A stretch of DNA of 64,000 nt from an uncultured delta proteobacterium (GTDB lineage: Bacteria > Desulfobacterota > Binatia > UBA9968), in NCBI GenBank assembly GCA_963745035.1, contig CAVUVW010000014.1, positions 480,001-544,000 on the forward strand, in the 5' to 3' direction. Both the position numbers and the translations under genes were made by a program. Below are positions 30,376 to 63,556 of the stretch, one piece after another; within the stretch, counting starts at the first letter, position 1; each line of letters starts with the position of its first letter. Under the pieces are notes generated by a model. The model made no database searches, was not told the DNA's origin, and saw only the letters and a program-made list of their open reading frames with translations.

Positions 30376-30408
30376 AAGGCGGCAAGTCGGGTCCCGCTGT
30401 GAGTCATA

Positions 30409-30424
30409 TTGGACCAAGGTCCAA
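30409..30424. promoter_or_regulatory. Palindromic regulator site TTGGAC-N4-GTCCAA (copy 1)
   Basis: ttggaccaaggtccaa, 23 nt before TAACCT (TGn-extended). Confidence 0.75.
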
Positions 30425-30489
30425 TCGTTCCCGTAGTTCTTCAGTGATAACCTTTCATTCAGTCGGTTAAACGATCAATCCGAGATGCA

Positions 30490-30830
30490 ACTCGGTCGGA
30501 CTCGGCGTCGGCGGCAGCTCGGGAGAAGGCGTGCTCAGTTATCAAGGCACAGATTGCCCGTTCACGATCTCGGGTTTCAACGTAGCGGATGTCGGCGTGG
30601 CAAATTTCAGGGCGCCGGCAAAGTCTACGATCTTAAGATCTCCAGGATTTCTCCGGCAACTAAGCTGCCGCCCAGGCAACATTTTCGATTCGCGGCGGTC
30701 AGAGTGAGCTTTCCATGCGTAACGCCAAAGGCGTGACCCTGGTCGTGCTGGCGCGCGACGGCAAAGAGACGGGTACCCGCTTAAGCCTCGGTCCCCGCGG
30801 GCGTCACGTTGAGCTTGAATAATAATTTTC
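30490..30830 (+). pseudogene. Degenerate copy of C-terminal domain of gene 40461-42134
   Basis: SVGLGVGGSSGEGVLSYQG...ISG...FQGAGKVYDLK...GTRLSLGP with frameshifts. Confidence 0.75.
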
Positions 30831-30884
30831 CGTCGCTGAAAGCGGCGTAAGAACATCGTCGCTGCAAACGTAATTGGGCCGATA

Positions 30885-32015
30885 ATGGCGGAAGGTACTC
30901 TCTCGTTCGCGCAAACAAATGACGCCCTGCTCCAAGTTCGTCTGGGAGGAGCATGGCGCTTGCGCGGCGGTTTGCCTTCGGTCGCTTTGCTCGAGCGCGA
31001 GCTGAATTCCGCTCCGCGCGTCAAAAATATCAGCTTCGATGCCGCCGAGCTGCAATCCTGGGACAGCAGCGTGCTCGCCTTTTTGGTCGAAGCCTCAGCT
31101 TTGTGCCGCACGCGCGGTATTCAATTGGACCGCGCCGGCTTGCCTTCCGGGCTGCAGCGGCTTTTGGACTTGGCCGAAGCGGTGCCGGAAAAGCAAGGGG
31201 CGCGCAAAGAAACCGTTCAGACACCTTTCCTCGAGCGGATCGGCAACAGCGCCATCGGCGCCGGCTCTTCGCTCGGGGAGATGCTCGCGTTTCTCGGCGA
31301 AATGTCGGTGACATTCGTCAGGCTTTTGCGCATGAACGTGCGCTTTCGCGCCGTCGATTTGGTTTTGCTGATCCAACAATCCGGCGCCCAGGCGCTGCCG
31401 ATCGTGACCCTGATCAGCTTTTTGGTCGGCGTGATCCTCGCCTTCGTCGGCGCCGTTCAGTTGCGACAATTCGGCGCGCAGATCTACGTCGCCGATCTGG
31501 TCGGCATCGCGATGATCCGCGAGATGGGCGCCATGATGACCGGCATCATCATGGCCGGACGCACCGGCGCCGCTTTCGCCGCTCAACTCGGCACGATGAA
31601 AGTCACTCAGGAAATCGACGCCTTCACCACCCTGGGATTTTCACCGCTGGAGTTCCTTGTGCTGCCGCGGGTCATCGCCTTGGTGTTGATGATGCCGCTG
31701 CTCTGTTTGTACGCGGACATCATCGGCGTGCTCGGCGGCGCGGCGATCGGCGTCGGCATGCTCGATCTTTCGTGGACGACCTATTTCCGCCAGACCTCCA
31801 ACGCCGTCGATCTGGTCGATGTCTTCGGCGGCGTGTTTAAAGCATCGGTCTATGGCGTACTGATTGCGCTCTCGGGCTGTCTGCGCGGGATCCAGTGCGG
31901 CAACAGCTCGTCGGCGGTCGGCGATGCGGCAACCTCGGCGGTGGTGACTGGAATCGTCGCCATCGTCGTCGCCTGCGGCATTTTTGCCGTAGTGTTTTAC
32001 GTGCTCGGCATCTAA
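30885..32015 (+). CDS. MlaE-family ABC permease with N-terminal STAS-like domain
   Basis: REMGAMMTGIIMAGRTGAAFAAQLGTMKVTQEIDA; WDSS STAS motif. Confidence 0.9.
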   Translation: MAEGTLSFAQTNDALLQVRLGGAWRLRGGLPSVALLERELNSAPRVKNISFDAAELQSWDSSVLAFLVEASALCRTRGIQLDRAGLPSGLQRLLDLAEAVPEKQGARKETVQTPFLERIGNSAIGAGSSLGEMLAFLGEMSVTFVRLLRMNVRFRAVDLVLLIQQSGAQALPIVTLISFLVGVILAFVGAVQLRQFGAQIYVADLVGIAMIREMGAMMTGIIMAGRTGAAFAAQLGTMKVTQEIDAFTTLGFSPLEFLVLPRVIALVLMMPLLCLYADIIGVLGGAAIGVGMLDLSWTTYFRQTSNAVDLVDVFGGVFKASVYGVLIALSGCLRGIQCGNSSSAVGDAATSAVVTGIVAIVVACGIFAVVFYVLGI

Positions 32016-32053
32016 GGCCAATGCGATGGCTAAAGAGCGGCTGATGAACTGAC

Positions 32054-32842
32054 ATGGCGGACGGAAGAGCGACCAACGGCAACGGCGCCAAGGCGCACAT
32101 CACGGTGAGCGATCTCACCATGGCGTACGGCAGCTTTGTGTTGATGCGCGGTCTCAATTTCACCATTGATCACGGCGACGTGTTCATCATCATGGGCGGC
32201 AGCGGCTGCGGCAAGAGCACTTTGCTGCGCCACTTGATCGGACTCAAGGAGCCCGCCCAGGGCCACATCTATTATGGCGACGAGAACTTTACCCGCGCGG
32301 ATGCCGCCAAACGACAGGAGATGGTGCGGCGCATGGGCGTGTTGTTTCAAAGCGGCGCCCTGTGGAGCTCGATGACGTTAGCGGAAAACGTCGGGCTGGC
32401 CCTCGGCGAATATACCGATCTAAGCCCCAAGGAGATCGCCGAGATCGCCTCGCTCAAGCTCGCGCTGGTCGGCTTGAAAGGCTTTGAGGATTATTACCCA
32501 TCGCAGATCAGCGGCGGCATGCAGAAACGCGCCGGATTGGCGCGCGCCATGGCGCTCGATCCAGAGATTCTATTTTTCGACGAGCCTTCGGCGGGCTTGG
32601 ACCCGATCAGCTCGCGCTTGCTCGACGATTTGATTCTCGAACTGCGGGACAGTCTGGGCGCGACGGTTGTGGTGGTCACGCACGAGCTGGCGAGTATTTT
32701 CACCATTGGCAACAACAGCGTGTTTCTCGACACCGAGACGCGCACGATGATCGCCGGCGGCGACCCGAAGGAGCTTTTGGCCCATTCGCGCGATCCGAAA
32801 GTGCGCCGGTTTTTAACCCGCGCGGAGGAGGAAAGAGCGTGA
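32054..32842 (+). CDS. MlaF-family ABC ATPase
   Basis: GGSGCGKST, SGGMQKRAGLARA, FDEPSAGLDP. Confidence 0.9.
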   Translation: MADGRATNGNGAKAHITVSDLTMAYGSFVLMRGLNFTIDHGDVFIIMGGSGCGKSTLLRHLIGLKEPAQGHIYYGDENFTRADAAKRQEMVRRMGVLFQSGALWSSMTLAENVGLALGEYTDLSPKEIAEIASLKLALVGLKGFEDYYPSQISGGMQKRAGLARAMALDPEILFFDEPSAGLDPISSRLLDDLILELRDSLGATVVVVTHELASIFTIGNNSVFLDTETRTMIAGGDPKELLAHSRDPKVRRFLTRAEEERA

Positions 32843-33849
32843 GCAAGAGAATCAGTCCGACGTTGATCGGCGCCTTCGTCCTCGGCGCGCTGGCTCTGGT
32901 CGTGGTCGCGGTGGTCGCTTTGGGCTCCGGGAGATTTTTCCGTCAGACTCGCGAGTTCGTGCTTTACTTCGACAGCTCGGTCAACGGTCTGCGCGTCGGC
33001 GCGCCGGTCAAGTTCAAAGGCGTCGAGATCGGCGCCGTCAAAGACATTCGCTTGCAACTCGAAAAGAGCGCGCAGGTCGACAAGATTCCGGTCATCATCG
33101 AAATCGATCTGGAGAAATTGACCTCGCGCGGCGCGAGCGGCGAGGTCGCGCGCGATCTGCCAACTTTCCATCAGACGATCGTTAAGATGGGACTGCGTGG
33201 CCAGCTCTTGATGGAAAGTCTGGTGACCGGCTTGCTCTATGTCGGGTTGGATCTGTTTCCCAACAGCCCGGTACGTCTCGTACAAACGGCCGGCAACAAT
33301 TACCGCTATCCGGAGATTCCCACCATACCGACCACGTTGGAAGAGGCCCAGGACGCAGTGACTCGTATCATTTCCAAACTTGAGGAGCTCGATTTCAAAG
33401 GCCTGACGAAGTCGCTCACCGAAACGGTCGATGGCATCAATCAACTGGTCAACTCGCCTGAAGTCAAGGCCTCGCTGCACGATTTGCGGCAAACAATGCC
33501 GAAGGTCGATGATGCGTTGGTGAGCGTGCGCAAGGCAGCGACGAGCCTGGACGCCAACGTGACAACGCTAAGCGCTAGCCTGGAACAGACCTCAGATGCG
33601 ACCCGCGAAGCGATGCAACAGGCAGCGGTCGCTCTCAAGCAATCCGACGGCGCGCTTAAGGCGGCTGAAGCCGCCATGGTCAACGTGAACGGCATCGTCG
33701 ATCAGGACTCGCCGACATTGTACGAGTTCAGAAGAAGCATGAAGGAGATCGCTGCGGCGGCGCGCACCTTGAGACTTTTGAGCGGCTATATCGAGAGAAA
33801 TCCCCGGGCTTTAATCTTCGGAAAGCCGGAAATCGTGGGAGACCAATGA
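32839..33849 (+). CDS. MlaD/MCE-domain protein with coiled-coil (PqiB-like)
   Basis: SVNGLRVGAPVKFKGVEIGAV, SLVTGLLYV, IERNPRALIFGK. Confidence 0.88.
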   Translation: MSKRISPTLIGAFVLGALALVVVAVVALGSGRFFRQTREFVLYFDSSVNGLRVGAPVKFKGVEIGAVKDIRLQLEKSAQVDKIPVIIEIDLEKLTSRGASGEVARDLPTFHQTIVKMGLRGQLLMESLVTGLLYVGLDLFPNSPVRLVQTAGNNYRYPEIPTIPTTLEEAQDAVTRIISKLEELDFKGLTKSLTETVDGINQLVNSPEVKASLHDLRQTMPKVDDALVSVRKAATSLDANVTTLSASLEQTSDATREAMQQAAVALKQSDGALKAAEAAMVNVNGIVDQDSPTLYEFRRSMKEIAAAARTLRLLSGYIERNPRALIFGKPEIVGDQ

Positions 33850-34460
33850 AATTTCTTCTTATCGTCGGATTCGCGCTCGCGCTCGCCGGCTGTACAAATT
33901 TCTCGGCGCAACCGGACCCATCGCGGTTCTTCACTCTGTCGGCGCTCTCGCAAGGCGAAGAAGGCGCGGAAAAGCACCCCGCGCAGGCTCCGAATCTCTC
34001 TTTCGGCATCGGGCCGGTGAGCTTGCCCGGCTACCTCGATCGTCAAGAGATCGTCACGCGTATCGCGCAAAACCAAATTCGTCTTTCCGACTACGATCGT
34101 TGGGCCGAGCCGCTCGAAGAAAGCATCGGCCGCGTGGTGTCGCAGAATGTAGCAAGTATTTTACGCGCAGAGCGGATCACAAGTTATCCGTGGCCGATCG
34201 ACAGGAGGCCGCTCTATCAAGTGGAACTCGAGATGCTGCGATTCGAAACCAACAACTCCCAGGAAGCGCACTTGGCGGCACGTTGGACGGTGCGCAACAC
34301 GGGAAAAAAAGATTCCGTCCGCTATCGCGATACCCGGCTGTCGCGGCCGGCGCGCGCCAGCTCCACCGACGCTTCCGTTGCCGCGCTGAGCGAGGTGTTG
34401 AAAGATCTGAGCCGGCAGATTGCGGACGCGATCGAGAACATGGACAGCAGCGGCAAATGA
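33846..34460 (+). CDS. PqiC-family ABC auxiliary lipoprotein
   Basis: Lipobox LAGC; GPVSLPGYLDRQEIV, RWAEPL. Confidence 0.88.
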   Translation: MKFLLIVGFALALAGCTNFSAQPDPSRFFTLSALSQGEEGAEKHPAQAPNLSFGIGPVSLPGYLDRQEIVTRIAQNQIRLSDYDRWAEPLEESIGRVVSQNVASILRAERITSYPWPIDRRPLYQVELEMLRFETNNSQEAHLAARWTVRNTGKKDSVRYRDTRLSRPARASSTDASVAALSEVLKDLSRQIADAIENMDSSGK

Positions 34461-35369: not shown

Positions 35370-38300
35370 ATGCGGCTTTCAAGAGCTTTGACAACGCTTG
35401 TGCTGGGTTGTCTATGTTGTCTCTCACGGCCTGAAATCGCCCCTGCTGCGCAGGAGGAGATGCGGCCTAAGCGTGTATTGATGATCTCGACCGGCAGCCG
35501 GATTGCGCCGGGCTTCGCGGCTGTTGATCAGCAGTTACTCCAAGCATTGGCGAAGGTCCCGGCGCCCGTCGAAACCTACGCGGAGAATCTCGATATCATT
35601 CGATTTCCTACGCAGCGTTTTCAGCGAATTTTCAGAGAATATTTAATGGAGAAATACGCCCAACATCCTCCCAACCTGATTATACTGGTCTACGTCGGTA
35701 ACTTAGGGATTAGCGTAAAATTGCTCGAGCAACTGTTTCCACAAACTCCGATTATAGTCGCCGGGATATCCGAAGAGGAAATCCGTCCCAACCAGTTCGG
35801 TGCGCTGGTCACTGGCTTGGTGCAGCGCATGGATCCGCGCACGACGTTGGAATTGATTCTCCGCCTACAACCCGACACCCGCCGTATTGTCGTCATCGGC
35901 GGCAGCGCAGAAGTAGATCGCACGTTTCTCAAGCGGGTGAAAGCCATCGCACCCTCCTTCGCAGGACGGGTCGACTTTGATTTTTGGGACAATCGTAGCA
36001 TGGCCCAGCTGCGCCATGACGTCGCCGTGCTGTCGCCGCAAACACCAATTCTCTTTACCGCAATGTTTCGGGATGGAGCAGGTCAGGCGTTTGTTTCCAG
36101 CCAGGTGGGGCAGAATATCGGTCAGTGGGCAAATGCACCAGTCTATGCCTTGACGAATACGGTTTTAGGCACCGGCGCTGTCGGTGGATCGATGCTCAGC
36201 ATCGAAGCAATGGGAAAGCGTGCCGGCGAAATGGCGCAGCTCATTCTAAGCGGTATGGCGCCGGCCTCGCTGCCATTCGAGATCCGTACGGACAGCGTGC
36301 CGACCTTCGATTGGCGCGCTTTGCAACGCTGGGGAATTCGGGAAAACCGGCTATCGCCGGGCAGCGTGGTGCGATTCAAACCGCCTTCTATATGGGAGCA
36401 ATACCGTTGGTACGTCATCGGCGCGCTCTTCATAATCTGCATGCAGGGCGCCATGATCGCCGATTTGCTTCTCCAGCGCCGACGCCGGCTCCGGGCGGAG
36501 GCCGGTTTGTTGGAGAGTCAACAATTCATGGAGTTAGCAACCGAAGCCGGCGGCATCGGATTGTGGGTTCGCGACCTGGTACGTGGGAATTTGTGGGCCA
36601 ATCCTCGCCTGCGTTCTTTGTTAGGATTCGGTGATGCGGATACGCTCAGCGTCGATGAGATTTTGGCTCGCGTCCATCCGCACGACCGAGCGATGGTCAC
36701 CGGAGTCGTCGAGCGAGCACAAGAGAGCGGAGCGCCTTTTGACGTAGAGTTTCGAACAGTATTTCCAGCTGCCCCGGAGCATTGGATTGCCGTCAGAGGC
36801 CAATTCGTACGCAGTCATGAAGGCGAGCTTGTGCGCCGTATGGGAACGATGATCGATATCACGGACCGCAAAGTAGCCGAGCAACAACTGTGGGAGAGTG
36901 AAGAGAACTTTCGCCGACTGGTGGAATCCACAGCGGCCGTCCTTTGGCAAGCCGACCCTGAAACCTGGGCATTTACCTACGTCGCCCCGCAGGCGGTGAA
37001 GCTGCTCGGTTATCCGCTGGAGCAGTGGTACGAACAAGATTTCTGGGTTTCGCATATCCATCCCGATGACCGGCAGTGGGCGGTCGACACGTGTATGACG
37101 AGGAGCCGGACCGCTGAAGAATTCGCATTCGATTACCGGATGATGAAAGCGTCGGGCGAGGTCGTCTGGGTTCATGATATCGTCAACTGCCAGCAGCAAA
37201 ATGGCAAGCCCAAGCAGCTACGCGGTCTGATGTTCGACATCACCGAGCGGAAACACAGCGAGCAGGCGATACTCGAGAGTGAACAGCGTTTTCGCACAAT
37301 GGCTAACGCGGCCCCGGTGATGATCTGGATGTCCGATGCCAATAAGCTCTGCACATTTTTCAACAAAGGCTGGCTCGATTTTACCGGGCGATCGCCAGAG
37401 CAAGAACTTGGCAGCGGTTGGCAAGAGAGTGTGCACGAAAGCGATCTTGATCGCTGCCTTGAAGTTTACTTCACGGCCTTTCATGTGCGCCAAGAATATA
37501 CGATCGAATTTCGTTTGCGTCGACACGACGGAGAATATCGCTGGGTTTTGGCTCGCGGAGTTCCGCGCTTCGAATCGGAGGGCATGTTCCTCGGATATAT
37601 CGGCACTGCCATCGATATTACCGAGCTTAAGCGCGGCGAGGAAAAATTCCGCAGCGCGGTTGAGGCCTCGCCCAACGCGATTGTGATGATCGACGAGCAA
37701 GACCGGATCTTGCTGGTCAACGTGTGCGCAGAAAAGCTGTTCGGTTACGCGCGCGAGGAATTATTCGGCCAACCCGTGGAGATGCTCGTTCCGGAGCGAT
37801 TTCGCGGCGCGCATCCGGCGCATCGCGCGGATTTTCTCGCGGCGCCGCAGACCCGATCCATAGGGGCGGGGCGAGAGCTGTTCGGTCTCTGCAAAGACGG
37901 CAGCGAGTTCCCGATCGAGATCGGGCTCAGCCCCATCCACACGGCTGAAGGATTAATCATATTAACCACGATCATCGACATTTCGGAGCGCAAGCGCAGC
38001 GCCGAAGCTCTGGAGAGGGAGCGGGTTTTCTTGCGACAGGTGATCGACACTGTGCCGAACTTTATTTTTGCCAAGGACCAGGACGGTCGCTTCACGCTCG
38101 CAAACCAGGCAGTAGCTGAAGCTTATGGTACAACCGTGGAGAATCTCATTGGCAAGAGCGATGCCGATTTCAACTCGAATATGGAAGAGGTCGAAGCGTT
38201 CCGGCGCGTCGACCAACAAGTCATCGAGACGCTGAGGGAACGCTTCATCGCGGAAGAACATATCACCGACGCAAAGGGGAGACTGCGCTGGCTTCAGACC

Positions 38301-39149
38301 GTCAAACGCCCGATCATCGAAAGCGATGGCAGGGCGAAGCAAGTGCTTGGCGCATCCACGGACATCACGCGACGCAAAGAAATAGATTTGGAGCTCAGGG
38401 AGCAGCGAGCGGAACTCGCCCACGCGGCGCGCTTGACGAGCATGGGAGAATTGGCGGCCTCCCTGGCGCATGAATTGAACCAGCCACTGACGGCGATCCT
38501 GAGCAATGCGCAAGCGGCACTCCGCTTCATGAACGGCAAATCGGTTCACCTCGAGGAGGTGCGGGAGATCCTGCGTGATATCGTCAAGGACAACAGCCGC
38601 GCGGGCGAAGTTATTCGGCGCATGCGTGCATTGGTCAAAAAGGAAACTCTCGAGTTCGTCTCGATCGATCTGGCGGGCCTGATCGAGGACGTGGTCTCGC
38701 TGGTCCACAGCGACGCGATTCTGCAGAACGTTCGAATCGCGCTTGAATTGAATGGCAGTCTGCCAGCGGTATGGGGCGATCGAGTGCAGCTGCAGCAGGT
38801 GGTGCTCAATATCATGTTGAACGCCTTCGACGCCATGAGCGAGTGTCCAACCGATCAGCGAAAGGTCGAATTGCAGGTGGAACCTTACGGCGCGGAGCTG
38901 ATCAAGATAGCTGTGAGCGACCGCGGACCGGGTCTAAGCGGAGACCAGCTCGACAAAATTTTCCAACCGTTTTACACCACGAAGGGTAATGGGTTAGGAA
39001 TGGGGCTGTCGATTTGTCGATCGATCATTGAGGCGCACGGTGGACGTCTCTGGGCTGAGAATAACAGCGAGGGCGGCGCAACGTTTCACTTCACCGTGCC
39101 GGTCGAGAAGTGTGGAGAAACGGCGGAAGTCGGCGTCGTCCGGACGTGA
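35370..39149 (+). CDS. Multi-PAS sensor histidine kinase with periplasmic binding-protein-like input domain (FixL/NodV-type core)
   Basis: Signal peptide, TM ~aa 345, about five PAS/PAC repeats (DITxRK-like ends), H-box LAHELNQPL, N/G boxes. Confidence 0.9.
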   Translation: MRLSRALTTLVLGCLCCLSRPEIAPAAQEEMRPKRVLMISTGSRIAPGFAAVDQQLLQALAKVPAPVETYAENLDIIRFPTQRFQRIFREYLMEKYAQHPPNLIILVYVGNLGISVKLLEQLFPQTPIIVAGISEEEIRPNQFGALVTGLVQRMDPRTTLELILRLQPDTRRIVVIGGSAEVDRTFLKRVKAIAPSFAGRVDFDFWDNRSMAQLRHDVAVLSPQTPILFTAMFRDGAGQAFVSSQVGQNIGQWANAPVYALTNTVLGTGAVGGSMLSIEAMGKRAGEMAQLILSGMAPASLPFEIRTDSVPTFDWRALQRWGIRENRLSPGSVVRFKPPSIWEQYRWYVIGALFIICMQGAMIADLLLQRRRRLRAEAGLLESQQFMELATEAGGIGLWVRDLVRGNLWANPRLRSLLGFGDADTLSVDEILARVHPHDRAMVTGVVERAQESGAPFDVEFRTVFPAAPEHWIAVRGQFVRSHEGELVRRMGTMIDITDRKVAEQQLWESEENFRRLVESTAAVLWQADPETWAFTYVAPQAVKLLGYPLEQWYEQDFWVSHIHPDDRQWAVDTCMTRSRTAEEFAFDYRMMKASGEVVWVHDIVNCQQQNGKPKQLRGLMFDITERKHSEQAILESEQRFRTMANAAPVMIWMSDANKLCTFFNKGWLDFTGRSPEQELGSGWQESVHESDLDRCLEVYFTAFHVRQEYTIEFRLRRHDGEYRWVLARGVPRFESEGMFLGYIGTAIDITELKRGEEKFRSAVEASPNAIVMIDEQDRILLVNVCAEKLFGYAREELFGQPVEMLVPERFRGAHPAHRADFLAAPQTRSIGAGRELFGLCKDGSEFPIEIGLSPIHTAEGLIILTTIIDISERKRSAEALERERVFLRQVIDTVPNFIFAKDQDGRFTLANQAVAEAYGTTVENLIGKSDADFNSNMEEVEAFRRVDQQVIETLRERFIAEEHITDAKGRLRWLQTVKRPIIESDGRAKQVLGASTDITRRKEIDLELREQRAELAHAARLTSMGELAASLAHELNQPLTAILSNAQAALRFMNGKSVHLEEVREILRDIVKDNSRAGEVIRRMRALVKKETLEFVSIDLAGLIEDVVSLVHSDAILQNVRIALELNGSLPAVWGDRVQLQQVVLNIMLNAFDAMSECPTDQRKVELQVEPYGAELIKIAVSDRGPGLSGDQLDKIFQPFYTTKGNGLGMGLSICRSIIEAHGGRLWAENNSEGGATFHFTVPVEKCGETAEVGVVRT

Positions 39150-39223
39150 GTGAGGCTATGTCCACACTGAAATACAAGTTTTCAGATCCAGTACCCGAAG
39201 GCCGGTTAGCTACCCGAAAGTTT

Positions 39224-39871
39224 ATGGCATCCTCTGCCAACACGGTTTTTCTTGTCGATGACGATCCTTCGGTCCGCAAGGCGTTGACACGGCTGATCAA
39301 GTCTGCCGGATTTGTCGTACACGCGTTTTCCTCGGCGGACGATTTTCTTAAATCCCGTACCACGGTGGACGAAGTCCCAGCCTGCTTGGTGCTCGATGTG
39401 CGTATGCCCGGCCTGAGCGGTCTAGATCTGCAGCTTGAATTGCAGGCTGCCGATGTGCTGCTTCCGATCATTTTCATTACCGGACACGGCGACATCCCGA
39501 TGAGTGTGCGGGCGATGAAGGATGGCGCCGTCGATTTTCTGCCGAAGCCCGTTCAGGACAAGGTGCTGCTGAAAACGATCGAGCAGGCGCTGGAGCGCGC
39601 CCGTCGCGATCACGCCGAGCGCGCAGAACTTGAGGGAATCCGGACGCGTCTCGATAGCTTGACCGCCCGTGAGTGCGAAGTAATGCAGCTGGTCGTGCAA
39701 GGTTTTTTGAACAAGCAGATCGCCTTCGAGCTCGGGACGGTTGAAAAAACCATCAAGGTGCATCGGGCGCGGGTCATGGAAAAGATGAAGGTGCGATCTC
39801 TTGCCGAGCTCGTGCACCTCAGCGATCGCGCGGGATTGGTGAAAAGTCCTAGTCTCCGGTCACGACGCTGA
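39224..39871 (+). CDS. FixJ/NodW-family response regulator (REC + LuxR HTH); alternative start 39158
   Basis: VDDD, LDVRMPG, ITGHGDIPM, FLPKP, LTARE...NKQIAFELGTVEKTIKVHR. Confidence 0.92.
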   Translation: MASSANTVFLVDDDPSVRKALTRLIKSAGFVVHAFSSADDFLKSRTTVDEVPACLVLDVRMPGLSGLDLQLELQAADVLLPIIFITGHGDIPMSVRAMKDGAVDFLPKPVQDKVLLKTIEQALERARRDHAERAELEGIRTRLDSLTARECEVMQLVVQGFLNKQIAFELGTVEKTIKVHRARVMEKMKVRSLAELVHLSDRAGLVKSPSLRSRR

Positions 39872-39938
39872 CCGACATCGATAGGCCTCCCTTCAGGCAG
39901 TCATTCCTCGTCTCCGCAACCTCTTTCCGTTCCTCCTA

Positions 39939-39954
39939 TTGGACTAAGGTCCAA
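39939..39954. promoter_or_regulatory. Palindromic regulator site (copy 2)
   Basis: ttggactaaggtccaa, 23 nt before TACAGT. Confidence 0.75.
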
Positions 39955-40043
39955 TATACGCGCACTTTTGCTCTCGCTACAGTCCTGTTCACTCGATGGT
40001 GTTGCTTATCAATCATTTCGGTCACGGCCCAGAGGGTGTCGCG

Positions 40044-40436
40044 TTGTATAAATCCAAACCGTTGATTGCCATCGTGGACGACGATGAATCGGTCTGCCGC
40101 GCAATACGGCGACTGGTGCGGTCACTGGCCATGGATGCAGAGATATTCAGCTCAGGGCGCCAGTTTCTCGATCTTCTTCATGCCATGCCCTCGTTCCAAC
40201 CTGACTGTGTGATTCTCGACGTGCAAATGCCTGGGATGAACGGTTTGGAGGTGCAAGAGCTGCTCTCCGAGAGCGGCAAGAAGTTTCCTTTGATCTTTAT
40301 TACAGCGCACGATGAGGTCGGCGTGCGGGAAAAGGCTCTCAATGGCGGAGCACTGGCCTTCCTGCGCAAACCCTTTGATGACGAGTTGCTCGTAAAGACT
40401 CTGAGTGAGGGGCTCAAACGCGCTGCGAGGAATTAA
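40044..40436 (+). CDS. Single-domain response regulator (CheY-like)
   Basis: IVDDD, LDVQMPG, ITAH, FLRKPF; TTG start after GAGGG assumed. Confidence 0.85.
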   Translation: MYKSKPLIAIVDDDESVCRAIRRLVRSLAMDAEIFSSGRQFLDLLHAMPSFQPDCVILDVQMPGMNGLEVQELLSESGKKFPLIFITAHDEVGVREKALNGGALAFLRKPFDDELLVKTLSEGLKRAARN

Positions 40437-40460
40437 TGAGTTCAAACAAGGGAAAAGTCG

Positions 40461-42134
40461 GTGACACAGTTTAAAGGTTTCTTTCGGTCCGGGTCTCGGT
40501 TCATGATCGGGGTGCTGGCGATTCTGGCGCTGCAACATGGAATGACTTTCGCCGCGCAGCACGCATATGAGCAGCGGGAAGTCCTCAGCGCTTCGAAAAT
40601 CCTACCGCCGGATCTTCTGAGCGGCCCGAATCATCGGGTCGAAGAAAGAGTTTACAACGACGGCTATCTTAATACCTATCGAATCGGCTCCAAGTTCGGT
40701 ACTTTCGTCGCCGTATCAACGCCAATGCTGCGCAAGCGCATCGGTGAGATCAATGCACTGGTTCGCATGGAGCAGATCCAGAACACGAAGGAATTTACCT
40801 CAGCGCTCAAGGAAGCAGGTACCGACACCTTGGTCGGCTTCAAAAATCTCGTCACCGAGCCCGGCGATACTGTAAAGGGCGCTGTTTCGGGATTAGGCGT
40901 GGCCTTTCGCCGGGCGGGCGACGCCCTCACAGGTCCAAAGCGGAGCGATGCCGAAGACAGCAAAATCAAAGACCTGATCGGGTTCTCTAAAACCAAGCGC
41001 GAATACGCCTACCAACTCGGGGTCGATGCCTATACCGATAACGAACAAGTCCAAGACCGGCTCGACCAGATTTCCTGGGCCGGATATGCCGGCGGGATTA
41101 CCTGGGCGGGCGCCATGGCCGCAGTGCCGGGGGGCGCCGGCTTGGCGATAACGATCTCGGGAACTCACCACCTGTTAAACGAGGTTTTTCGCACCACGCC
41201 TCCAGTCGATCTGCGCCGAATGAATGGCGAAAAACTCAAGGCCATGGCCGTGCATCCGGAAGTCGCTGATGCCTTTTTGAACAATTCCTTCTATTCACCG
41301 CGATACCAGACGCTGCTGGTCCATGCGCTGGAGGAAATGAAAGGCGTCGGCGATCGGGCGACCTTCATCCGATTGGCGGCGTCCAGTGTAAATAGGGACA
41401 TCGCGTTTTTCCGCCAGCGACAGGCTGAAACGTACGCGGGCTTTCATAAAGCGGTAGCTCCGGTTGCAGCATTTATCGACTTGGGTGGATTTGCCGCCGT
41501 GCGAACCACAAAGAACGAAGTGGTCTTCAGCGTACCACTGGATCATCTCGTCTGGACTGAAGACATGGCGAAATTATTGACCGCCGCGGACGCTCGCGTC
41601 ACTCAATTAAACCGTCCGGCCCGCAAACAATTATGGATCACTGGAACAACGAGTACGCGGGCAAAAAAGGAGCTCGAAGCTCGAGGCTGGCAGCTGCACG
41701 AGCGGGCGGAACAGCGGTTGCTCAGTTGGTCCGAAGAGTATCCGAACTATCAGAAGCCGGAGGAAAGAGTCCCGGACGCTCTCGTCAAACTGAACTTTAA
41801 GTCTGTCGGCGTCGGTGTCGGTGGCAGCTCCGGCGATGGCATTCTTTCGTACCAGGGCAAAGACTATCCACTGGGGATCTCCGGAATCAATATTGCCGAT
41901 CTTGGCGTATCGCAGTTTCAGGGTGCGGGCAAAGTGTACGAACTCAAGAACGTCGCCGATTTCTCCGGTAACTATGCCGCGGCGCAGGCCGCCTTCGCGG
42001 TTCGGGGAGGACAGAGTTCTTTGTCCATGAAAAATGGCAAAGGCGTAACCATTGTAATTTTGCAGGATGAGGGCAAAGAATCGGGAACGCGCTTAAGCCT
42101 CGGCCCATCCGGTATCACTTTTAAGCTAAAGTAA
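40461..42134 (+). CDS. Exported hypothetical protein with C-terminal beta-rich (DUF1134/EipA-like) domain
   Basis: Signal peptide; C-terminal SVGVGVGGSSGDGILSYQGK...GAGKVYELKNVADFSGNY. Confidence 0.7.
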   Translation: MTQFKGFFRSGSRFMIGVLAILALQHGMTFAAQHAYEQREVLSASKILPPDLLSGPNHRVEERVYNDGYLNTYRIGSKFGTFVAVSTPMLRKRIGEINALVRMEQIQNTKEFTSALKEAGTDTLVGFKNLVTEPGDTVKGAVSGLGVAFRRAGDALTGPKRSDAEDSKIKDLIGFSKTKREYAYQLGVDAYTDNEQVQDRLDQISWAGYAGGITWAGAMAAVPGGAGLAITISGTHHLLNEVFRTTPPVDLRRMNGEKLKAMAVHPEVADAFLNNSFYSPRYQTLLVHALEEMKGVGDRATFIRLAASSVNRDIAFFRQRQAETYAGFHKAVAPVAAFIDLGGFAAVRTTKNEVVFSVPLDHLVWTEDMAKLLTAADARVTQLNRPARKQLWITGTTSTRAKKELEARGWQLHERAEQRLLSWSEEYPNYQKPEERVPDALVKLNFKSVGVGVGGSSGDGILSYQGKDYPLGISGINIADLGVSQFQGAGKVYELKNVADFSGNYAAAQAAFAVRGGQSSLSMKNGKGVTIVILQDEGKESGTRLSLGPSGITFKLK

Positions 42135-42160
42135 AAGGTAGAGCTCGCGAGGAATTTACA

Positions 42161-43528
42161 ATGAATCGAAATATTGACGGGCGAATCTTTATCTGGCTGA
42201 TGATTGGCCTTTTGTCTGCGCCCCCGCAGGTGTTCTCTCAGCAGAAGGCAGCCGCTCCGGAGAAGACAGCCGCTGCGGTTTTTTCGCAGGAAGAATTGGA
42301 TCAAACCCTGGCGCCCATCGCGCTCCACCCGGACTCGCTCGTCGCGCAGATTTTAATGGCGTCCACATATCCACTGGAGGTGGTGCAGGCCGACCGCTGG
42401 GCAAAGCAAAACGCCAGTCTCAAGGGGGATGCTCTGACCAAGGCGCTCGAGTCGCAGAACTGGGACCCGAGCGTAAAATCGCTGGTGAACTTTCCCCAGG
42501 TACTCACCATGATGAGCGAGAAGCTCGACTGGACTCAGAAGCTCGGCGACGCGTTTTTGGCCGACCAGAAAAAAGTCTTGGATACCATCCAGAGTTTGCG
42601 CGCCAAAGCGCAGGCTTCCGGCAATCTCAAAACGACCAAAGAGCAGACCGTCATCGTCGAAGAAAAGATCATCAAGATCGAGCCGGCACAACCCCAAACG
42701 GTTTACGTGCCGACCTATAACCCGACCGTGGTTTACGGCGCGTGGCCGTACCCGGCCTCCCCGCCTTATTACTACTATCCGCCGGGATATGTAGCCAGCT
42801 CCGTGCTTGCGTTCGGCGCCGGTGTCGCCATGGGGGCCGCGTGGGGTTATGCGTGGGGCGGCTGCAACTGGGGCGGCGGAGACGTCGACATCGATGTCGA
42901 TCGGAACACGAATATCAATAACAACATCAACCGAGACCAGGCCAAGCAGAAATTACAGGAGAGGGGACAGGCTAATCAAAGGGGTCAGGGCAAATGGCAG
43001 CACAACCCCGAGCACCGCAAAGGAGTTTCGTATCGCGACCAGGGAACGGCGCAGAAATTCAATCGGGAGAGCACCAACCAGGCGATTCAGTCCAGGGAAC
43101 AGTTTCGTGGACGGTCCGAGCAAGGACAGCAGGAATTGGCTCGCGGAGGCGGCGATCGCGCCGCTGCCGGCGATCGCGGTGGCCAGGGACCAGGCGGTGA
43201 CCGCGGCGGAAGCGATCGCGCTGCTGGCGGTGACCGCGGCGGCGCCGGTGGTGACCGCGGTGGGGGCGATCGCGCTGCGATTAGCGATCGAGGCGGCCAG
43301 GGAGTCGGCGGTGATCGAGGCGGGTCGGGCGGTGATCGAGGCGGTGCAAGTCAGCTCGGTGGTTCCGGCAGCCGCGGCGGCGCATTCGAGGGTGTCGGGG
43401 GTGGGGGCAGCTCAGCCCGCAGCGCGAGCGAGCGCGGCAGTGCCAGTCGCGGCGGCGGTGGCGGAGGGCGTGGGGGCGGTGGCGGCGGAGGCCGGGGGGG
43501 TGGTGGTGGCGGAGGCCGGCGCCGCTAG
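42161..43528 (+). CDS. DUF3300 domain protein with Gly/Arg-rich tail
   Basis: ELDQTLAPIALHPDSLVAQILMASTYP, WDPSVKSL, VYVPTYNPTVVYGAW, WQHNPEHR. Confidence 0.88.
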   Translation: MNRNIDGRIFIWLMIGLLSAPPQVFSQQKAAAPEKTAAAVFSQEELDQTLAPIALHPDSLVAQILMASTYPLEVVQADRWAKQNASLKGDALTKALESQNWDPSVKSLVNFPQVLTMMSEKLDWTQKLGDAFLADQKKVLDTIQSLRAKAQASGNLKTTKEQTVIVEEKIIKIEPAQPQTVYVPTYNPTVVYGAWPYPASPPYYYYPPGYVASSVLAFGAGVAMGAAWGYAWGGCNWGGGDVDIDVDRNTNINNNINRDQAKQKLQERGQANQRGQGKWQHNPEHRKGVSYRDQGTAQKFNRESTNQAIQSREQFRGRSEQGQQELARGGGDRAAAGDRGGQGPGGDRGGSDRAAGGDRGGAGGDRGGGDRAAISDRGGQGVGGDRGGSGGDRGGASQLGGSGSRGGAFEGVGGGGSSARSASERGSASRGGGGGGRGGGGGGGRGGGGGGGRRR

Positions 43529-43605
43529 TTTGAGCCGGAAGAGCGGAATCAGAAGGTGGAACTGTGGAAAATTTGAATGTTGCTCTTGGTTTTACCGGAG
43601 GAGAA

Positions 43606-44553
43606 ATGAAGTTTGCGAACGCAAAATCGCAAAGCCGCGCCGATCAATGGTTGCTCGCGAGCGTCGTGTTCGTTACAGTGATGTTGAATTGCAGTCTGTC
43701 GTTTGCGGCGGCAGCCCCGCAAAAAACCTTCAGCTCGGCTGAAGAAGCGGTCAAAGCCGCAATAGCCGCGGCGAAGAAGGGTGACGATAAAGAAGTTAGC
43801 GCAATCTTCGGTCCCGGCTCCCAGGAACTGCTGCATTCAGGGGACGCCATTGCGGATAAGCAGAGGCGAGCCGAATTTCTCAAGGCCTACGACGAAAGAA
43901 ACCGGCTGGTCACCGAAGGGGAGCATACCATCCTTGTGGTAGGCAAAACCGATTGGCCGCTGCCGATTCCGTTAGTCAAGAAAGGCAACGGCTGGATCTT
44001 CGATGCTGCCAAAGGAAAAGAAGAAGTACTCAATCGCCGCATCGGGCAAAACGAGCTCAGTGCGATTCAGGTTACATTAGCCTACGTCGATGCACAGCGG
44101 GAGTATGCGAGGAAGGATCGCGACCGTGATGGGCTGTTGGAATACGCCCAGAGGCCTCGCAGCGAATCGGGCAAGCGGAATGGGCTGTACTGGCCAGTCA
44201 AGAGTGGAGAAGAGCAGAGCCCCCTAGGGCCACTGGCTGCCCGCGCCGTCAAAGAAGGATATAAGGCAAGCGATAAACCGGTCCCCTTCCATGGCTATTA
44301 TTACCGCATTCTTACGGCGCAAGGGAAAAACGCGCCCGGTGGAGCCTACAGCTATCTCGTGAAAGGCAGCATGATCGGCGGCTTTGCTCTGGTGGCCTAT
44401 CCGGCGGAGTACCGCAATTCCGGAGTGATGACTTTTATCGTCAACCACGACGGCAAAGTGTTTCAGAAGGATCTCGGAAAGAACACCGCTGCGGTCGCCT
44501 CCGCGATGAAAGAATACAATCCGGACCAGAGCTGGGTGGAGGTGCAACAGTGA
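43606..44553 (+). CDS. DUF2950 domain protein
   Basis: WPLPIPLVK, RRIGQNEL, YVDAQREY, GYYYRIL, FALVAYPAEYRNSGVMTF. Confidence 0.88.
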   Translation: MKFANAKSQSRADQWLLASVVFVTVMLNCSLSFAAAAPQKTFSSAEEAVKAAIAAAKKGDDKEVSAIFGPGSQELLHSGDAIADKQRRAEFLKAYDERNRLVTEGEHTILVVGKTDWPLPIPLVKKGNGWIFDAAKGKEEVLNRRIGQNELSAIQVTLAYVDAQREYARKDRDRDGLLEYAQRPRSESGKRNGLYWPVKSGEEQSPLGPLAARAVKEGYKASDKPVPFHGYYYRILTAQGKNAPGGAYSYLVKGSMIGGFALVAYPAEYRNSGVMTFIVNHDGKVFQKDLGKNTAAVASAMKEYNPDQSWVEVQQ

Positions 44554-48995: not shown

Positions 48996-49011
48996 TTGGA
49001 CCAAAGTCCAA
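48996..49011. promoter_or_regulatory. Palindromic regulator site (copy 3)
   Basis: ttggaccaaagtccaa, 23 nt before TAAAAA (TGn-extended). Confidence 0.75.
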
Positions 49012-49101
49012 TACACAGCGTATCGGCTCTTTGATAAAAACCGCGGCTAGCGGGGTGATTACGAAAACGACCATCGTAAATTTTTGCAGGAGGAGTTGCG
49101 T

Positions 49102-49194
49102 ATGAAACCACTAATTCTCGCGGTCATCGTTATGATGCTTTCAAGCTCTACTGTCGCGCAAGGAAACAATTCTACAGACAGGCCCGCTTTATAG
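49102..49194 (+). CDS. 30-aa signal-peptide-like ORF (small protein or truncated gene)
   Basis: AGGAGGAG SD; MKPLILAVIVMMLSSSTVAQGNNSTDRPAL*. Confidence 0.45.
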   Translation: MKPLILAVIVMMLSSSTVAQGNNSTDRPAL

Positions 49195-49203
49195 AGGTAA
49201 CCC

Positions 49204-50466
49204 ATGACAATAGGAACTCGATCAGTGCTTCTCTCTAACCTTTTGCGCTATTCGGCATGTGTCCGTCGTACGATTTCACTGAAGGCCGTTTCAGCTCTCG
49301 CCGCGGGGCTCGTGCTGACCGGTTGTGGGACTGCCATACAGCGCTCGGACGTTGAGCGGCAGAATCTCCTGAAACTGCGCAGCGCGAGCGACGAACAGTC
49401 CATCGTGGTTGCCCGGAGACTGTTCGCTCGATTGCTGCAACGCACCAAGGCCGAGTACGACCGGCGCGCCGCAGCAGGGCAGCCGCCGCCGGTGATCGAT
49501 ATTCTGATTGTCTCGGGCGGAGGTGACTGGGGGGCGTTCGGAGCGGGATTTCTCAAGGGGTGGCAGAAGGTGCCGGCCCAACACCCGCTGGCGAAGCCTG
49601 AGTTCGACGCTGTAACCGGAGTAAGCACTGGCGCGTTGATCGCACCATTCGCTTTCCTGGGCGACGAGCAGTCGATCGATCAGATCGTCAACCTCTATCG
49701 CAACCCGGAGCCGGACTGGGTGAAGAACCGCGGGTTTCTTTATTTTTTGCCCGACAATATTTCTTTCGCCGAAGTGCCGGGGCTCGAGCGCGAGATGCGC
49801 AAACACATCACCTTGGACATGGCGCGTCGTCTCACGAAGGCGGGAAGCGACGGTCGACTGCTGGCGGTCAACACGACCAACCTTGACGATGCCTCGTCGC
49901 GGGTATTCGACCTGGTGGCGGAAGCCCAGCGCGCCTCTGACTCCGGCCAGCTTGACCGCATTCACAATGTCATGCTCGCATCCGCGGGAATTCCGGGTGC
50001 TTTCCCGTTCCGTATGATCGACGACGAGCTCTACGTCGACGGCGGCGTTACCGGAAACATCATCTATGGCGGGCGTGTAACGGAAGAGGATAGCTTGCCG
50101 GCCGCGTGGCAGAAGACCTATCCGAACCTGCCCATCCCGAAGATACGCTATTGGGTAATTTTCAACAATCAGTTCCGCCCAGTACCGGAGGTGGTGGCAC
50201 CGAAATGGCCGGCGGTCATTCAACGAAGCCTTGAAACGTCCACACGCGCGGCGACGGCGACCGCGGTGCGGCATCTTTACGCTATGGCCGAGATCTCGCG
50301 GCTCAGGCGCAAGGCCGAAGTGGAAGTGCGTATCGTTTCGATCCCTGGCGATTGGTTACCTCCGATACCCGGGATTTTTATCAAAGAGAGTATGAACAAT
50401 CTCGCGGACCTCGGCGAGAAGATGGGCGCCGATCCATCCAGCTGGAGCACGGAGCCGCCGCAGTAG
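49204..50466 (+). CDS. Patatin-like phospholipase lipoprotein
   Basis: Lipobox LTGC; SGGGDWGAFG, GVSTG, DGG. Confidence 0.88.
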   Translation: MTIGTRSVLLSNLLRYSACVRRTISLKAVSALAAGLVLTGCGTAIQRSDVERQNLLKLRSASDEQSIVVARRLFARLLQRTKAEYDRRAAAGQPPPVIDILIVSGGGDWGAFGAGFLKGWQKVPAQHPLAKPEFDAVTGVSTGALIAPFAFLGDEQSIDQIVNLYRNPEPDWVKNRGFLYFLPDNISFAEVPGLEREMRKHITLDMARRLTKAGSDGRLLAVNTTNLDDASSRVFDLVAEAQRASDSGQLDRIHNVMLASAGIPGAFPFRMIDDELYVDGGVTGNIIYGGRVTEEDSLPAAWQKTYPNLPIPKIRYWVIFNNQFRPVPEVVAPKWPAVIQRSLETSTRAATATAVRHLYAMAEISRLRRKAEVEVRIVSIPGDWLPPIPGIFIKESMNNLADLGEKMGADPSSWSTEPPQ

Positions 50467-61646: not shown

Positions 61647-61944
61647 GTTGTACGTTCGATGAGCCTGTCCGCAATGAGGCAAGGCACGATGAAATTTGAA
61701 AGCCTACTCCCGCTCTTCCAGGGACTCAGGCTTTTCGAGCTACAAAATCAAGGAGTGCATCCTAGTCAATTCTATTGTTCCTAAGTTAAATGGCCTCGGG
61801 GTTTAGGCAAGATTTTCAAGAAACTCTGCCGCTTAATTATGCTATTATGCCCGGAGCAGCACGTTCGGGCTCGTAACTCTTTTGAAGGTTTAGCGCCATT
61901 GCGCGTACTGACTAGTCAGTCGGAGCTGAAGAATCGAACAGTCC

Positions 61945-62202
61945 CACGAGGCGAATCGGTCGCTCTTTGCCTTCGGCCTACAACGCCGGTCCGGGGCGCA
62001 TCGCGAGCATGCGTAAGGAGGCGGCCAAGCGCGGACTAGACCCGGACAAGTGGTTTAACAACGTTGAGATCGTTACGGCAGAAGGTCGGTATCGAACCGA
62101 CCACGACGTGCGCAACATCTATAAATACTACGTGGCAAGCCGATGCTCGATCTCGAAGAAACCCAGAAAGAGGCGCGCGAGGCGGTCAAGCAGGGGGGCT
62201 GA
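61945..62202 (+). pseudogene. Remnant of MltF-like C-terminus (paralogue of 52025-52291)
   Basis: AYNAGPGRIASMRKEAAKRGLDPDKWFNNVEIVTAE, nearly identical at the protein level, with indels. Confidence 0.85.
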
Positions 62203-62307
62203 GGATTTCGGACTTGCCGAAAAGCAGACGGCAAGGCTTGGACAATTCAAGCGCGGAAACACTGGAACAGCTGTTATTTTGGAATTCCGAGAGGGTATAG
62301 TAGACAG

Positions 62308-63414
62308 ATGAAACCGATGATCTCGCTGGCGGCGACCACCGGTCTGATAGAAGCCATTAGCGCGGCCGGTGGAGATCCGGATCGAGTTTTAGCCGCCGTC
62401 GGTTTGAAGCGCTCGAGCCTCGACAAAGCCGACGGATTCATCCCTTGCGCTACTTTTGCACGGCTGTTGGAAGAAGCAGCCAAGGCCACTGGCGATCATT
62501 GTTTTGGATTGCATTTCGGCGAGCGGTTCAATCCTAAAGATATCGGCCCGCTGGCTTACGTGGCGTTGAATTCACCGACCATCGCCGTGGCTGATGAACA
62601 AATAGCGCGTTACTTAAAACTCTACAATCAAGCGGCGCAAGTGTCCGCGGCCGTCGAGGGAACGGGTGCTTACCTCCACTTCAAACTTACCGATCTGGAT
62701 ATACCGCACTCGCGCCAGGAGAATGAGTACAGCATGGTCCTCAGGCTGAATGCCGTTCGAATGATGGTGGGCAGCCAATGGGCGCCTCGCGAGGTTCGAT
62801 TCGTCCACGATAAACCGGAAAATATTTTAGAGCACGAGAGGGTTTTTTGTGCGCCCGTGCTGTTCCGCTTTCCCACGAATAATTTTCTGATTGATGCGGA
62901 CTTCCTGAACTCCCGCGTGCCGGCGGCTGATCCAGGACTCTACCGAATCATGAAACGTTACCTCGAGGATATTTTGGAGACGATGCCAGAGGAAGACGGC
63001 GTACTTATGAAGTTTCGCACCGCCATTGCCGAGGGTTTAAGGGAGGGAGAGCCGAGCCTTGCGCGCATTGCCAAGCGACTGGGCGTGGGGCCGCGCACGT
63101 TACAGCGACAACTTCGTGCGCACGAAATCAGATTTAAAAAGCTGGCCGACGACACACGCCGGCATTTTGCCTTGAATTATCTAAAAGACCCTAACAACAC
63201 GCTCACGCAAATCGCTTTTCTTCTGGGGTATTCCGAAGCAAGCGCGTTTAATCGTGCGTTCAAGCGCTGGACCGGCCTGACGCCGCAGATTTATCGTTCG
63301 CAAGCGACGGGCGAGCGCGGCGCGGACGATTCTACCGATCGTCAATTAAAACCACATTCTCCCAGGCGCAGCCGATTTGGACTGGGCCCGCTGCAAAGCT
63401 TGTTCTCACCGTAA
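62308..63414 (+). CDS. AraC-family transcriptional regulator (N-terminal Arabinose_bd_2-type domain)
   Basis: FGLHFGE, GPLAYV; HTH IAKRLGVGPRTLQRQL, IAFLLGYSEASAFNRAFKRWTGLTP. Confidence 0.9.
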   Translation: MKPMISLAATTGLIEAISAAGGDPDRVLAAVGLKRSSLDKADGFIPCATFARLLEEAAKATGDHCFGLHFGERFNPKDIGPLAYVALNSPTIAVADEQIARYLKLYNQAAQVSAAVEGTGAYLHFKLTDLDIPHSRQENEYSMVLRLNAVRMMVGSQWAPREVRFVHDKPENILEHERVFCAPVLFRFPTNNFLIDADFLNSRVPAADPGLYRIMKRYLEDILETMPEEDGVLMKFRTAIAEGLREGEPSLARIAKRLGVGPRTLQRQLRAHEIRFKKLADDTRRHFALNYLKDPNNTLTQIAFLLGYSEASAFNRAFKRWTGLTPQIYRSQATGERGADDSTDRQLKPHSPRRSRFGLGPLQSLFSP

Positions 63415-63540
63415 AACCCACTGCTGGATCATTTGGGGTGTCTGTCGGCCCGGTGTCCATCCTCCAACAGCTGGCCCGACGGCGGCAACCAGCGCCCCGG
63501 CACGGCCGGCAGCGACGGTGAGGACTGCCCTCTCCCAAAG

Positions 63541-63556
63541 TTGGACCAAAGTCCAA
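63541..63556. promoter_or_regulatory. Palindromic regulator site (copy 4)
   Basis: ttggaccaaagtccaa, 23 nt before TAAAAG; following ~28 nt resemble those of copy 3. Confidence 0.75.

Follow-up and report, generated by a model that had tools for sequence, protein, structure and literature searches.

We analyzed a window of 64,000 nt (64 kb; positions 480,001 to 544,000 of contig CAVUVW010000014.1, from an uncultured delta proteobacterium; coordinates below count from its first letter), in which an inverted repeat, TTGGAC-N4-GTCCAA (TTGGACNNNNGTCCAA), occurs exactly four times, at 30409-30424, 39939-39954, 48996-49011 and 63541-63556. In full, the element forms a palindrome of 18 bp, ATTGGACC-AA-GGTCCAAT, with an 8-2-8 layout, and is thus longer than the 16 bp given in a preliminary description of this DNA that had been made from its letters. 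We propose that the palindrome is most probably a class II-type activator site for the FixJ/StyR-type response regulator encoded next to its second copy (39224..39871, + strand). The best reading of this regulator is that it belongs to an uncharacterized StyR/FixJ-like subfamily. The mechanism so proposed is conventional, and ordinary for this family of proteins.

The four copies compare with an expectation of 0.0033 per window from base composition, and no match was found in 100 dinucleotide shuffles of the window. With up to two mismatches allowed, seven matches were found against a shuffle mean of 2.05; the three additional ones, at 756, 13478 and 59356, are at chance level and are noise. 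All four exact copies are intergenic relative to the called open reading frames (ORFs), as the preliminary description had stated. A 185-aa minus-strand ORF overlapping the region of site 1 (29850-30407) was rejected as spurious, as it has no family match and overlaps two plus-strand features. Site 1 (ATTGGACCAAGGTCCAAT, 30408..30425, +) is a perfect 18-bp palindrome, and site 2 (ATTGGACTAAGGTCCAAT, 39938..39955, +) has one asymmetric base. In sites 3 (48995..49012, +) and 4 (63540..63557, +), both of which read GTTGGACCAAAGTCCAAT, the first A is replaced by G and there is one asymmetric base in addition. A weight matrix trained solely on 18 sites from other genomes, with the window sites left out, gave sites 1 to 4 scores of 31.1, 29.9, 27.2 and 27.2 bits, site 1 being the best in the window. 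The next best window position scored 9.1 bits, and the top score in 50 block shuffles of the window was 19.1 bits. Neither the mismatch scan nor the weight-matrix scan found a second box 5' of the kinase gene at 35370 or of the genes at 44773 and 46566.

The boxes stand in a fixed relation to a promoter-like hexamer. From each of the four, an interval of exactly 23 nt leads to a hexamer starting with TA (TAACCT, TACAGT, TAAAAA and TAAAAG for sites 1 to 4), and a TGn precedes this -10-like hexamer at sites 1, 3 and 4 and is absent at site 2, which bears out the earlier account. A weak -35-like hexamer abuts the 3' end of the 18-bp box. Sites in other genomes, described below, were oriented solely by gene order (regulator stop, box, next same-strand gene; n = 9). 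A TAnnnT was found 22-24 nt past the box in all nine (23 nt in six, 24 nt in two and 22 nt in one), for a background chance of 0.014 per site, and the six bases directly 3' of the box again form a weak -35 (TWNACA), such as TTTACA, TATACA or TAGACA. Moreover, the central dinucleotide is AA in the direction of the promoter, and never TT, in 11 of 11 rows (the window site at 39939 and related loci L001, L002, L003, L005, L006, L009, L031, L033, L057 and L069). Therefore, the otherwise symmetric box carries orientation information. If transcription is assumed to start about 7 nt past the hexamer, the predicted position of the box center is near -43.5. The distance from the box, which abuts the -35 position, to the TA-hexamer is 23 nt in four of four window sites and 22-24 nt in nine of nine sites from other genomes, which supports the class II activator geometry put forward in the preliminary description. 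A simple consensus scan found no consensus sigma-70 promoter at the four window sites, and this fits activator dependence.

Contact with the -35 position would also be expected of an operator, that is, of a site at which the regulator or another protein represses by occupying the -35 region and the sequence upstream. A study of StyR reports that this regulator can repress on occupying additional sites (PMC2442086), and in one related locus (L057, 5711-5748) two boxes lie in tandem with centers 22 bp apart, the promoter-proximal one having one TAAAC (StyR-like) arm. However, the -35-like hexamers are weak and a consensus promoter was detected at none of the four window sites. In addition, the spacing from box to -10 is strict across phyla, as would be required by a face-of-helix contact with polymerase but not by occlusion, and the high-affinity StyR site, at about -40 from the start, is the activating one and is essential for activation, as described in that study (PMC2442086). 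We consider repression improbable, and infer that binding of the regulator to the box activates transcription.

Site 2 is the one for which the assignment of a target is strongest. Its box (39939) lies 68 nt 3' of the stop of the regulator gene, a position that is conserved in other genomes, and is followed by a -35-like TATACG (39955-39960) and a -10-like TACAGT (39978-39983), with a predicted start near 39990 (+). The operon 3' of the box (40044..44553, +) codes for a stand-alone receiver (40044-40436; likely TTG start, GAGGG ribosome site), a 557-aa protein with an EipA-like C-terminus (40461-42134), a DUF3300 protein (42161-43528) and a DUF2950 protein (43564-44553), all on the + strand. 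This unit fits the regulator-box-receiver layout that is conserved in related loci, and the window receiver is 67% identical to the receiver of L003. The 557-aa protein had been labeled "DUF1134-like". It has no match in Pfam, even at E 10, and hence none at the gathering score of EipA/DUF1134 (PF06577). The label keeps an indirect basis, in that the C-terminal 123 residues of the protein are 38.7% identical (E 2e-15) to L066:9478-9936, which scores 27.2 bits against the Pfam model for EipA (the former DUF1134), below the cut-off of 30.8. A literature search on DUF3300 and DUF2950 found nothing on regulation.

The regulator has a receiver (PF00072, E 3e-26) and a GerE helix-turn-helix (HTH) domain (PF00196, E 1e-20), and is thereby a member of the NarL/FixJ group with a LuxR-type HTH. 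Its start codon is uncertain within 39110-39224. Residues D12, D13, D14, D58, T86 and K108 are invariant in a 25-sequence alignment (A2, the window regulator and 24 homologues), and the recognition helix, the proposed reader of the box, is V-E-K-T-I-K-V-H-R. The protein is the sole intact GerE-type regulator within the window. The gene upstream (35370..39149, +) codes for a 1259-aa sensor histidine kinase, in which HisKA and HATPase are combined with several PAS domains and a periplasmic ABC_sub_bind-like domain. For one of the PAS domains (residues ~757-872, window ~37638-37985) the best matches in the PDB are haem-binding PAS domains, namely those of DosP, FixL and a recent kinase entry (E 1e-12 to 1e-16), and a His is aligned within the A-H-P motif of DosP. 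By itself, this haem-PAS-like domain hints at a gas or redox signal for this kinase.

Homologues of the regulator are abundant: 8000 of 8000 scored candidates had E <= 0.001, and the 120 homologue clusters listed were 58-99% identical to it, mostly 70-80%. Alignment A2 was used to fetch related loci from a genome collection, and 80 loci with 10-kb flanks (1.28 Mb; 48-64% identity, many phyla), among at least 601 matching stretches, formed the comparison set. The exact box occurs in these loci in 12 copies, distributed over 8 loci, against 0.06 expected; there are also three sites with one mismatch and 29 with two. The good sites are for the most part directly 3' of the regulator stop (L001, L003, L005, L031, L033 and L069), where L002, L006, L009 and L057 have degenerate ones.

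The exact box is found almost exclusively with regulators whose recognition helix reads E-K-T-[IV]-K. The loci were sorted into helix classes by the three residues aligned to E174-K175-T176, classes that were defined after the data had been seen, so that the p-values given here are descriptive. Of the 18 E-K-T loci, 7 have an exact box somewhere in the locus, as does one of the 62 others (L051; Fisher p 7e-5). A box with at least one GGAC/GTCC arm within 400 nt past the regulator stop is present in 9 of the 18 and in none of the 62 (Fisher p 2e-7). Eight of these nine were detected by the palindrome criterion and the ninth (L006) by the mismatch scan. Other helices are accompanied by other palindromes. 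The E-I-T (some E-V-T) loci L004, L013, L017, L022, L023, L035, L037, L044, L054, L063, L065 and L067 carry CTATAC-N4-GTATAG, the E-S-T loci L030, L036 and L058 carry CGATAC-N4-GTATCG, and L009, with the helix E-R-T, has TTGAAC-N4-GTACAA at the post-regulator position. The palindromes that go with alternative helices share the 6-4-6 form and are often found at the post-regulator position; in all these box types the arms end in AC, and in most of these regulators the helix then continues with a conserved Lys-Val (or Lys-Ile). This suggests a helix-to-box code across the whole regulator branch. In a quick maximum-likelihood tree, 15 of 19 E-K-T rows, the window included, are in one 19-row group (SH-aLRT 92, which is not decisive), and the box-bearing loci, with the exception of L057, are all within it. 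This group spans Bacillota, Myxococcota, Verrucomicrobiota, Rokuibacteriota, Pseudomonadota, Acidobacteriota, Lentisphaerota and Elusimicrobiota.

The same data bear on whether the palindrome is a protein site at all, rather than an RNA hairpin at gene ends, a small mobile repeat or a product of chance. The arms could fold into a hairpin (6-bp stem, 4-nt loop), two of the copies come after gene ends, and sites 3 and 4, with 42 of 48 bases in common, could be a duplicated cassette. Yet, no T-run follows the hairpin, there is no terminator-like site at the boxes, and a search of the whole window at the Rfam gathering score returned no match; no tRNA was found. Across phyla the arms are conserved in sequence, not by compensatory change, and the flanks past the -10 are unrelated. 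Chance is excluded by the box counts, and the box tracks the recognition helix. We regard an origin of this kind as very improbable.

What lies 3' of the post-regulator box in other genomes resembles site 2. The first ORF codes for a stand-alone receiver in seven of nine loci (L001, L002, L003, L005, L006, L033 and L069; 54 ORFs scanned), and otherwise for Hsp20 (L009) or an Fe/Mn superoxide dismutase (L031). These receivers retain the acidic pocket, the phospho-acceptor Asp and the conserved Lys. Further cargo consists of desulfoferrodoxin and pyruvate:ferredoxin oxidoreductase (L001), a radical-SAM/SPASM enzyme and a sulfatase (L002), an OmpA-like protein (L003), a fatty-acid desaturase (L033), an AI-2E transporter (L031), a chemoreceptor and c-di-GMP enzymes (L069), and, on the other strand of L003 at 4397, a small secreted protein with an AraC regulator. 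In L033 a box is located 5' of the gene for a GAF kinase, upstream of the regulator, and in L080 upstream of a large ORF that contains the regulator; some related systems are therefore probably autoregulated. The haem-PAS-like domain of the window kinase was sought in the 80 loci and found in 12. Ten of the 12 have the aligned His, with regulators of helix class E-S-T, E-N-T or E-A-T; L057, the sole E-K-T locus among the 12, has a weak match that is without the His.

Site 1 has the highest score and decayed surroundings. A -35-like hexamer (30425-30430) and a TGn followed by TAACCT (30445-30453) place its predicted start near 30460 (+). Box 1 (30409) is 33 nt 3' of the stop of a remnant of a paralogous FixJ-type regulator gene (30211..30375, +), of which the C-terminal HTH part is left, with the E-K-T-I-K helix kept. 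The 46 residues encoded by 30211-30348 match residues 153-198 of the intact regulator at 56.5% identity (tblastn, E 1.4e-11). The observation that two copies follow a FixJ-type gene or its remnant thus stands, with distances of 68 nt for 39939 and 33 nt for 30409. Between box 1 and mlaE is an EipA-like pseudogene remnant (30528..30819, +) with a frameshift and an in-frame stop, in which residues 460-497 and 483-557 of the 557-aa protein are matched in two frames (50-56% identity, E 2e-19). That a regulator remnant and a broken EipA-like domain flank box 1 argues that the box belonged to a paralogous regulator-box-effector module, the genes of which have since decayed. The box itself is perfect and top-scoring though the flanking genes have decayed, which argues for continued selection, plausibly through transcription running on into mlaE at 30885. 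The Mla-type ABC operon that starts there (30885..34460, +) codes for a STAS-MlaE protein (PF02405), an MlaF-like ATPase (PF00005), an MlaD-domain protein (PF02470) and an auxiliary lipoprotein (PF03886), and is a possible read-through target of box 1.

At site 3, TGn and TAAAAA (49032-49040) give a predicted start near 49047. The unit that follows (49103..50466, +) consists of a 30-codon, signal-peptide-like ORF (49103-49195) and a gene for a patatin-like phospholipase (49204-50466, PF01734). To judge from its position this unit is likely to be driven by box 3, and the assignment is a good one. A gene for a MASE1-PAS histidine kinase (46566-48641), which has no adjacent response regulator, ends 355 nt 5' of box 3; this kinase could be a second input to the 39224 regulator. 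At site 4, TGn and TAAAAG (63577-63585) give a predicted start near 63592. A gene start that is truncated at the window end (63931..64000, +; 23 codons, AAGGAGG ribosome site) may be the target of box 4, in which case the leader would be ~340 nt long. Sites 3 and 4 (48994-49041 and 63539-63586) are identical at 42 of 48 bases from box to -10, and at 18 of 23 in the spacer, with flanks at background identity, so that their likeness reflects either a duplicated promoter cassette or an unusually tight constraint on the spacer. It was also observed that a gene for an AraC-type regulator with an Arabinose_bd domain adjoins the box both in the window (62308-63414, upstream of box 4) and in L003 (2313-3317), the most closely related locus, where the box points at the small secreted protein and then at the AraC gene.

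The preliminary description had the 39224 protein drive all four units: the Mla operon, the receiver operon, the patatin unit and the gene at 63931. The link between regulator and box is strongly supported by the helix co-variation over the 80 loci, and the receiver-557aa-DUF3300-DUF2950 unit by its layout. Several points weigh against the proposal. The 80 loci are a non-random sample of at least 601 matching stretches, and the peptide pattern used for fetching them includes the E-K-T helix. Within the fetched DNA the exact box is present in just 7 of the 18 E-K-T loci, several of the other loci being short contigs, and L034, L056 and L075, from the same tree group, show degenerate boxes or half-sites only. 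The co-variation of helix and box may stem from few independent events. In the window, two of the four -10 hexamers have A or G, not T, as the last base. As the haem-PAS-like domain is absent from the kinases of the other E-K-T loci, no common signal can be inferred, and a shared oxygen signal for the box family, which we considered, is unsupported. Two of the target assignments are weakened as well. The pseudogene comes first 3' of site 1 and the Mla operon only after ~425 nt, owing to which the assignment for site 1 is held with moderate confidence. That for site 4 is the weakest, given the long leader (box 4 is ~375 nt 5' of the gene at 63931), the promoter-like sites in between (63625-63653 and 63823-63850) and the truncation of the gene.

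Other observations raise the question of which protein reads the boxes. A decayed second regulator with the same helix adjoins box 1, and homologues in metagenomes are very numerous, at 70-99% identity, with 70-80% ones abundant. Further, two or more related regulators are found side by side in several loci (for example L030, L036 and L039). It could be, then, that the palindrome is a real response-regulator site bound mainly by another E-K-T paralogue from elsewhere in the genome, or by several with cross-talk, and that the 39224 protein controls at most its own adjacent site. We hold this to be unlikely: the 39224 protein is the only intact regulator of its type in the 64 kb, and the four boxes are nearly identical and could be read by one protein.

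We therefore favor control of the four sites by the 39224 regulator, and envisage the following sequence of events. The PAS-rich kinase 35370 would phosphorylate the regulator, which would then bind ATTGGACC-AA-GGTCCAAT as a dimer. With the box set against a weak -35 and a TAnnnT 23 nt further on, the bound dimer would recruit sigma-70 polymerase, in class II fashion, to promoters that lack a good -35, and the four promoters would fire. The site 2 promoter, which is the best supported, would drive the genes for the stand-alone receiver and the EipA-like, DUF3300 and DUF2950 proteins, and induction of the receiver would probably make a feedback or phosphate-sink loop. The site 3 promoter would drive the small ORF and the patatin gene, the site 1 promoter may reach the Mla lipid-transport operon by read-through of the decayed pseudogene, and the site 4 promoter lies upstream of gene 63931.

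Regulators of the FixJ/StyR branch are very common in environmental genomes, and almost none has a known DNA site; here, a precise candidate is available for one large subfamily. The architecture is simple, with a box that abuts the -35 and a stand-alone receiver as the first target, and the correspondence between helix and box could serve to predict regulons straight from metagenome assemblies. The predicted targets in the window have envelope or lipid functions (the Mla transporter, the EipA-like protein, DUF3300/DUF2950 and the patatin lipase). If the proposal is true, the system would couple remodeling of the envelope to the PAS kinase and its possible gas or redox signal. A search of full-text literature, subscription journals not included, for the box in exact and degenerate spelling yielded nothing but primers from unrelated papers, and suggests weakly that the motif and the cassette are undescribed in the searchable literature.

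Taken jointly, the observations admit a broader and decidedly more tentative reading, namely that kinase, regulator, box and receiver form an ancient, horizontally moving cassette found in mostly uncultured bacteria from at least eight phyla, in which a helix residue sets two bases of the box and the Lys version is DosR-like. Lys would pair with GG, Ile with TA and Ser with AT, as a recognition code for the StyR/FixJ branch, and the Lys version would have converged on, or would share ancestry with, the DosR box. In bacteria of soils and sediments, the Lys version may accordingly mark out regulons for stress or low oxygen that resemble that of DosR and whose cargo is freely exchanged.

Other features of the window are given here for completeness. 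An ORF of 1907 aa (24090-29813) contains the UvrA interaction domain and the UvrA DNA-binding domain twice each, along with several ABC ATPase motifs, and amounts to a fused, double-length UvrA-like ATPase. It is followed by a DUF983 gene (29814-30194), and a B12-radical-SAM enzyme is encoded at 44773-46323, 5' of the MASE1-PAS kinase gene. The ORF at 17683-18792, outside the region of the finding, has a weak match to DndB (DNA-sulfur-modification-associated; E 2.6e-10). A plasmid origin was considered and rejected, the one weak match (608 bp) covering no more than an ABC ATPase gene. Among the ORFs scanned there was no integrase, transposase or tRNA to bear out the earlier label of "island" for this region.

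The proposed system can be compared with four that are known. NarL/NarP sites are arranged as 7-2-7, and box 1 likewise reads as a perfect 7-2-7; as in NarL/NarP, a 16-bp inverted repeat would be read by a GerE-type HTH dimer. The sequence of the arms is unrelated, and NarL is a distant homologue of the regulator (E 5e-17, whole protein). The FixLJ system is closer. Among NCBIfam models the regulator matches FixJ best (NF006900; 216 bits, cut-off 255) and the kinase FixL (NF041777; 422 bits, cut-off 850; best stretch at residues 866-1246), and both fall below their cut-offs. The helix of FixJ (5xso) is P-R-T-I-E, unlike the E-K-T-I-K of the window regulator. The pair is FixLJ-like but is not FixLJ. 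The gene fixT is induced indirectly through FixK, whereas the window receiver gene is directly behind the regulator's own box. There is a parallel, too, for the receiver: in Caulobacter, FixT is a stand-alone receiver with a feedback action on a FixL-type kinase (PMC7078487).

StyR is the closest solved structure to the window regulator (1yio/1zn2, E 3.5e-59, residues 5-202), with FixJ next, and both StyR and the window protein consist of a receiver plus a GerE HTH. A study of this group describes recognition of ATAAACN4GTTTAT by StyR-type regulators via K175, V176 and H179 (PMC5874301). The window box has the same 16-bp, 6-4-6 layout as the StyR site, with an arm ending in AC, and the window regulator keeps the Lys and Val equivalent to K175 and V176. 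In contrast, V172 of StyR is replaced by Lys and H179 by Ala, and the arm is TTGGAC rather than ATAAAC, which puts regulator and box outside the StyR/TodT group as delimited by K175, V176, H179 and ATAAACN4GTTTAT. In addition, the partner kinase is not a double kinase of the TodS/StyS type, aromatic-degradation genes are absent nearby and, unlike in StyR/TodT systems, the box follows the regulator gene, ahead of a stand-alone receiver.

The promoter-proximal DosR box also overlaps the -35, and the likeness to DosR extends to the sequence of the box. In published reports, the DosR box is TTSGGGACTWWAGTCCCSAA (PMC2275270), K179, K182 and N183 of DosR make base contacts (PMC4082495, PMC5861037), and the peptide 175-188 holds the helix A-E-K-T-V-K-N (PMC5861037). 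The window box and TTSGGGACTWWAGTCCCSAA have a GGAC-N4-GTCC core in the same register and differ in the outer bases of the arms (TT vs SG). The window regulator has the equivalents of both base-contacting lysines, K179 and K182, and Val in place of N183. Both proteins are of the same broad LuxR/NarL-type family, with HTH domains that are only distantly similar (E 0.007-0.03). As judged by K179, K182, N183, the TTSGGGACTWWAGTCCCSAA box and close homology together, the window regulator is not a DosR/DevR. The kinases differ as well, and the gene cargo of the box family is not a conserved regulon, even if some boxes in other genomes precede genes for stress proteins (Hsp20, superoxide dismutase and desulfoferrodoxin). 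From the alignment, the window box would best be described as a StyR-type site whose GG is specified by a DosR-like lysine.

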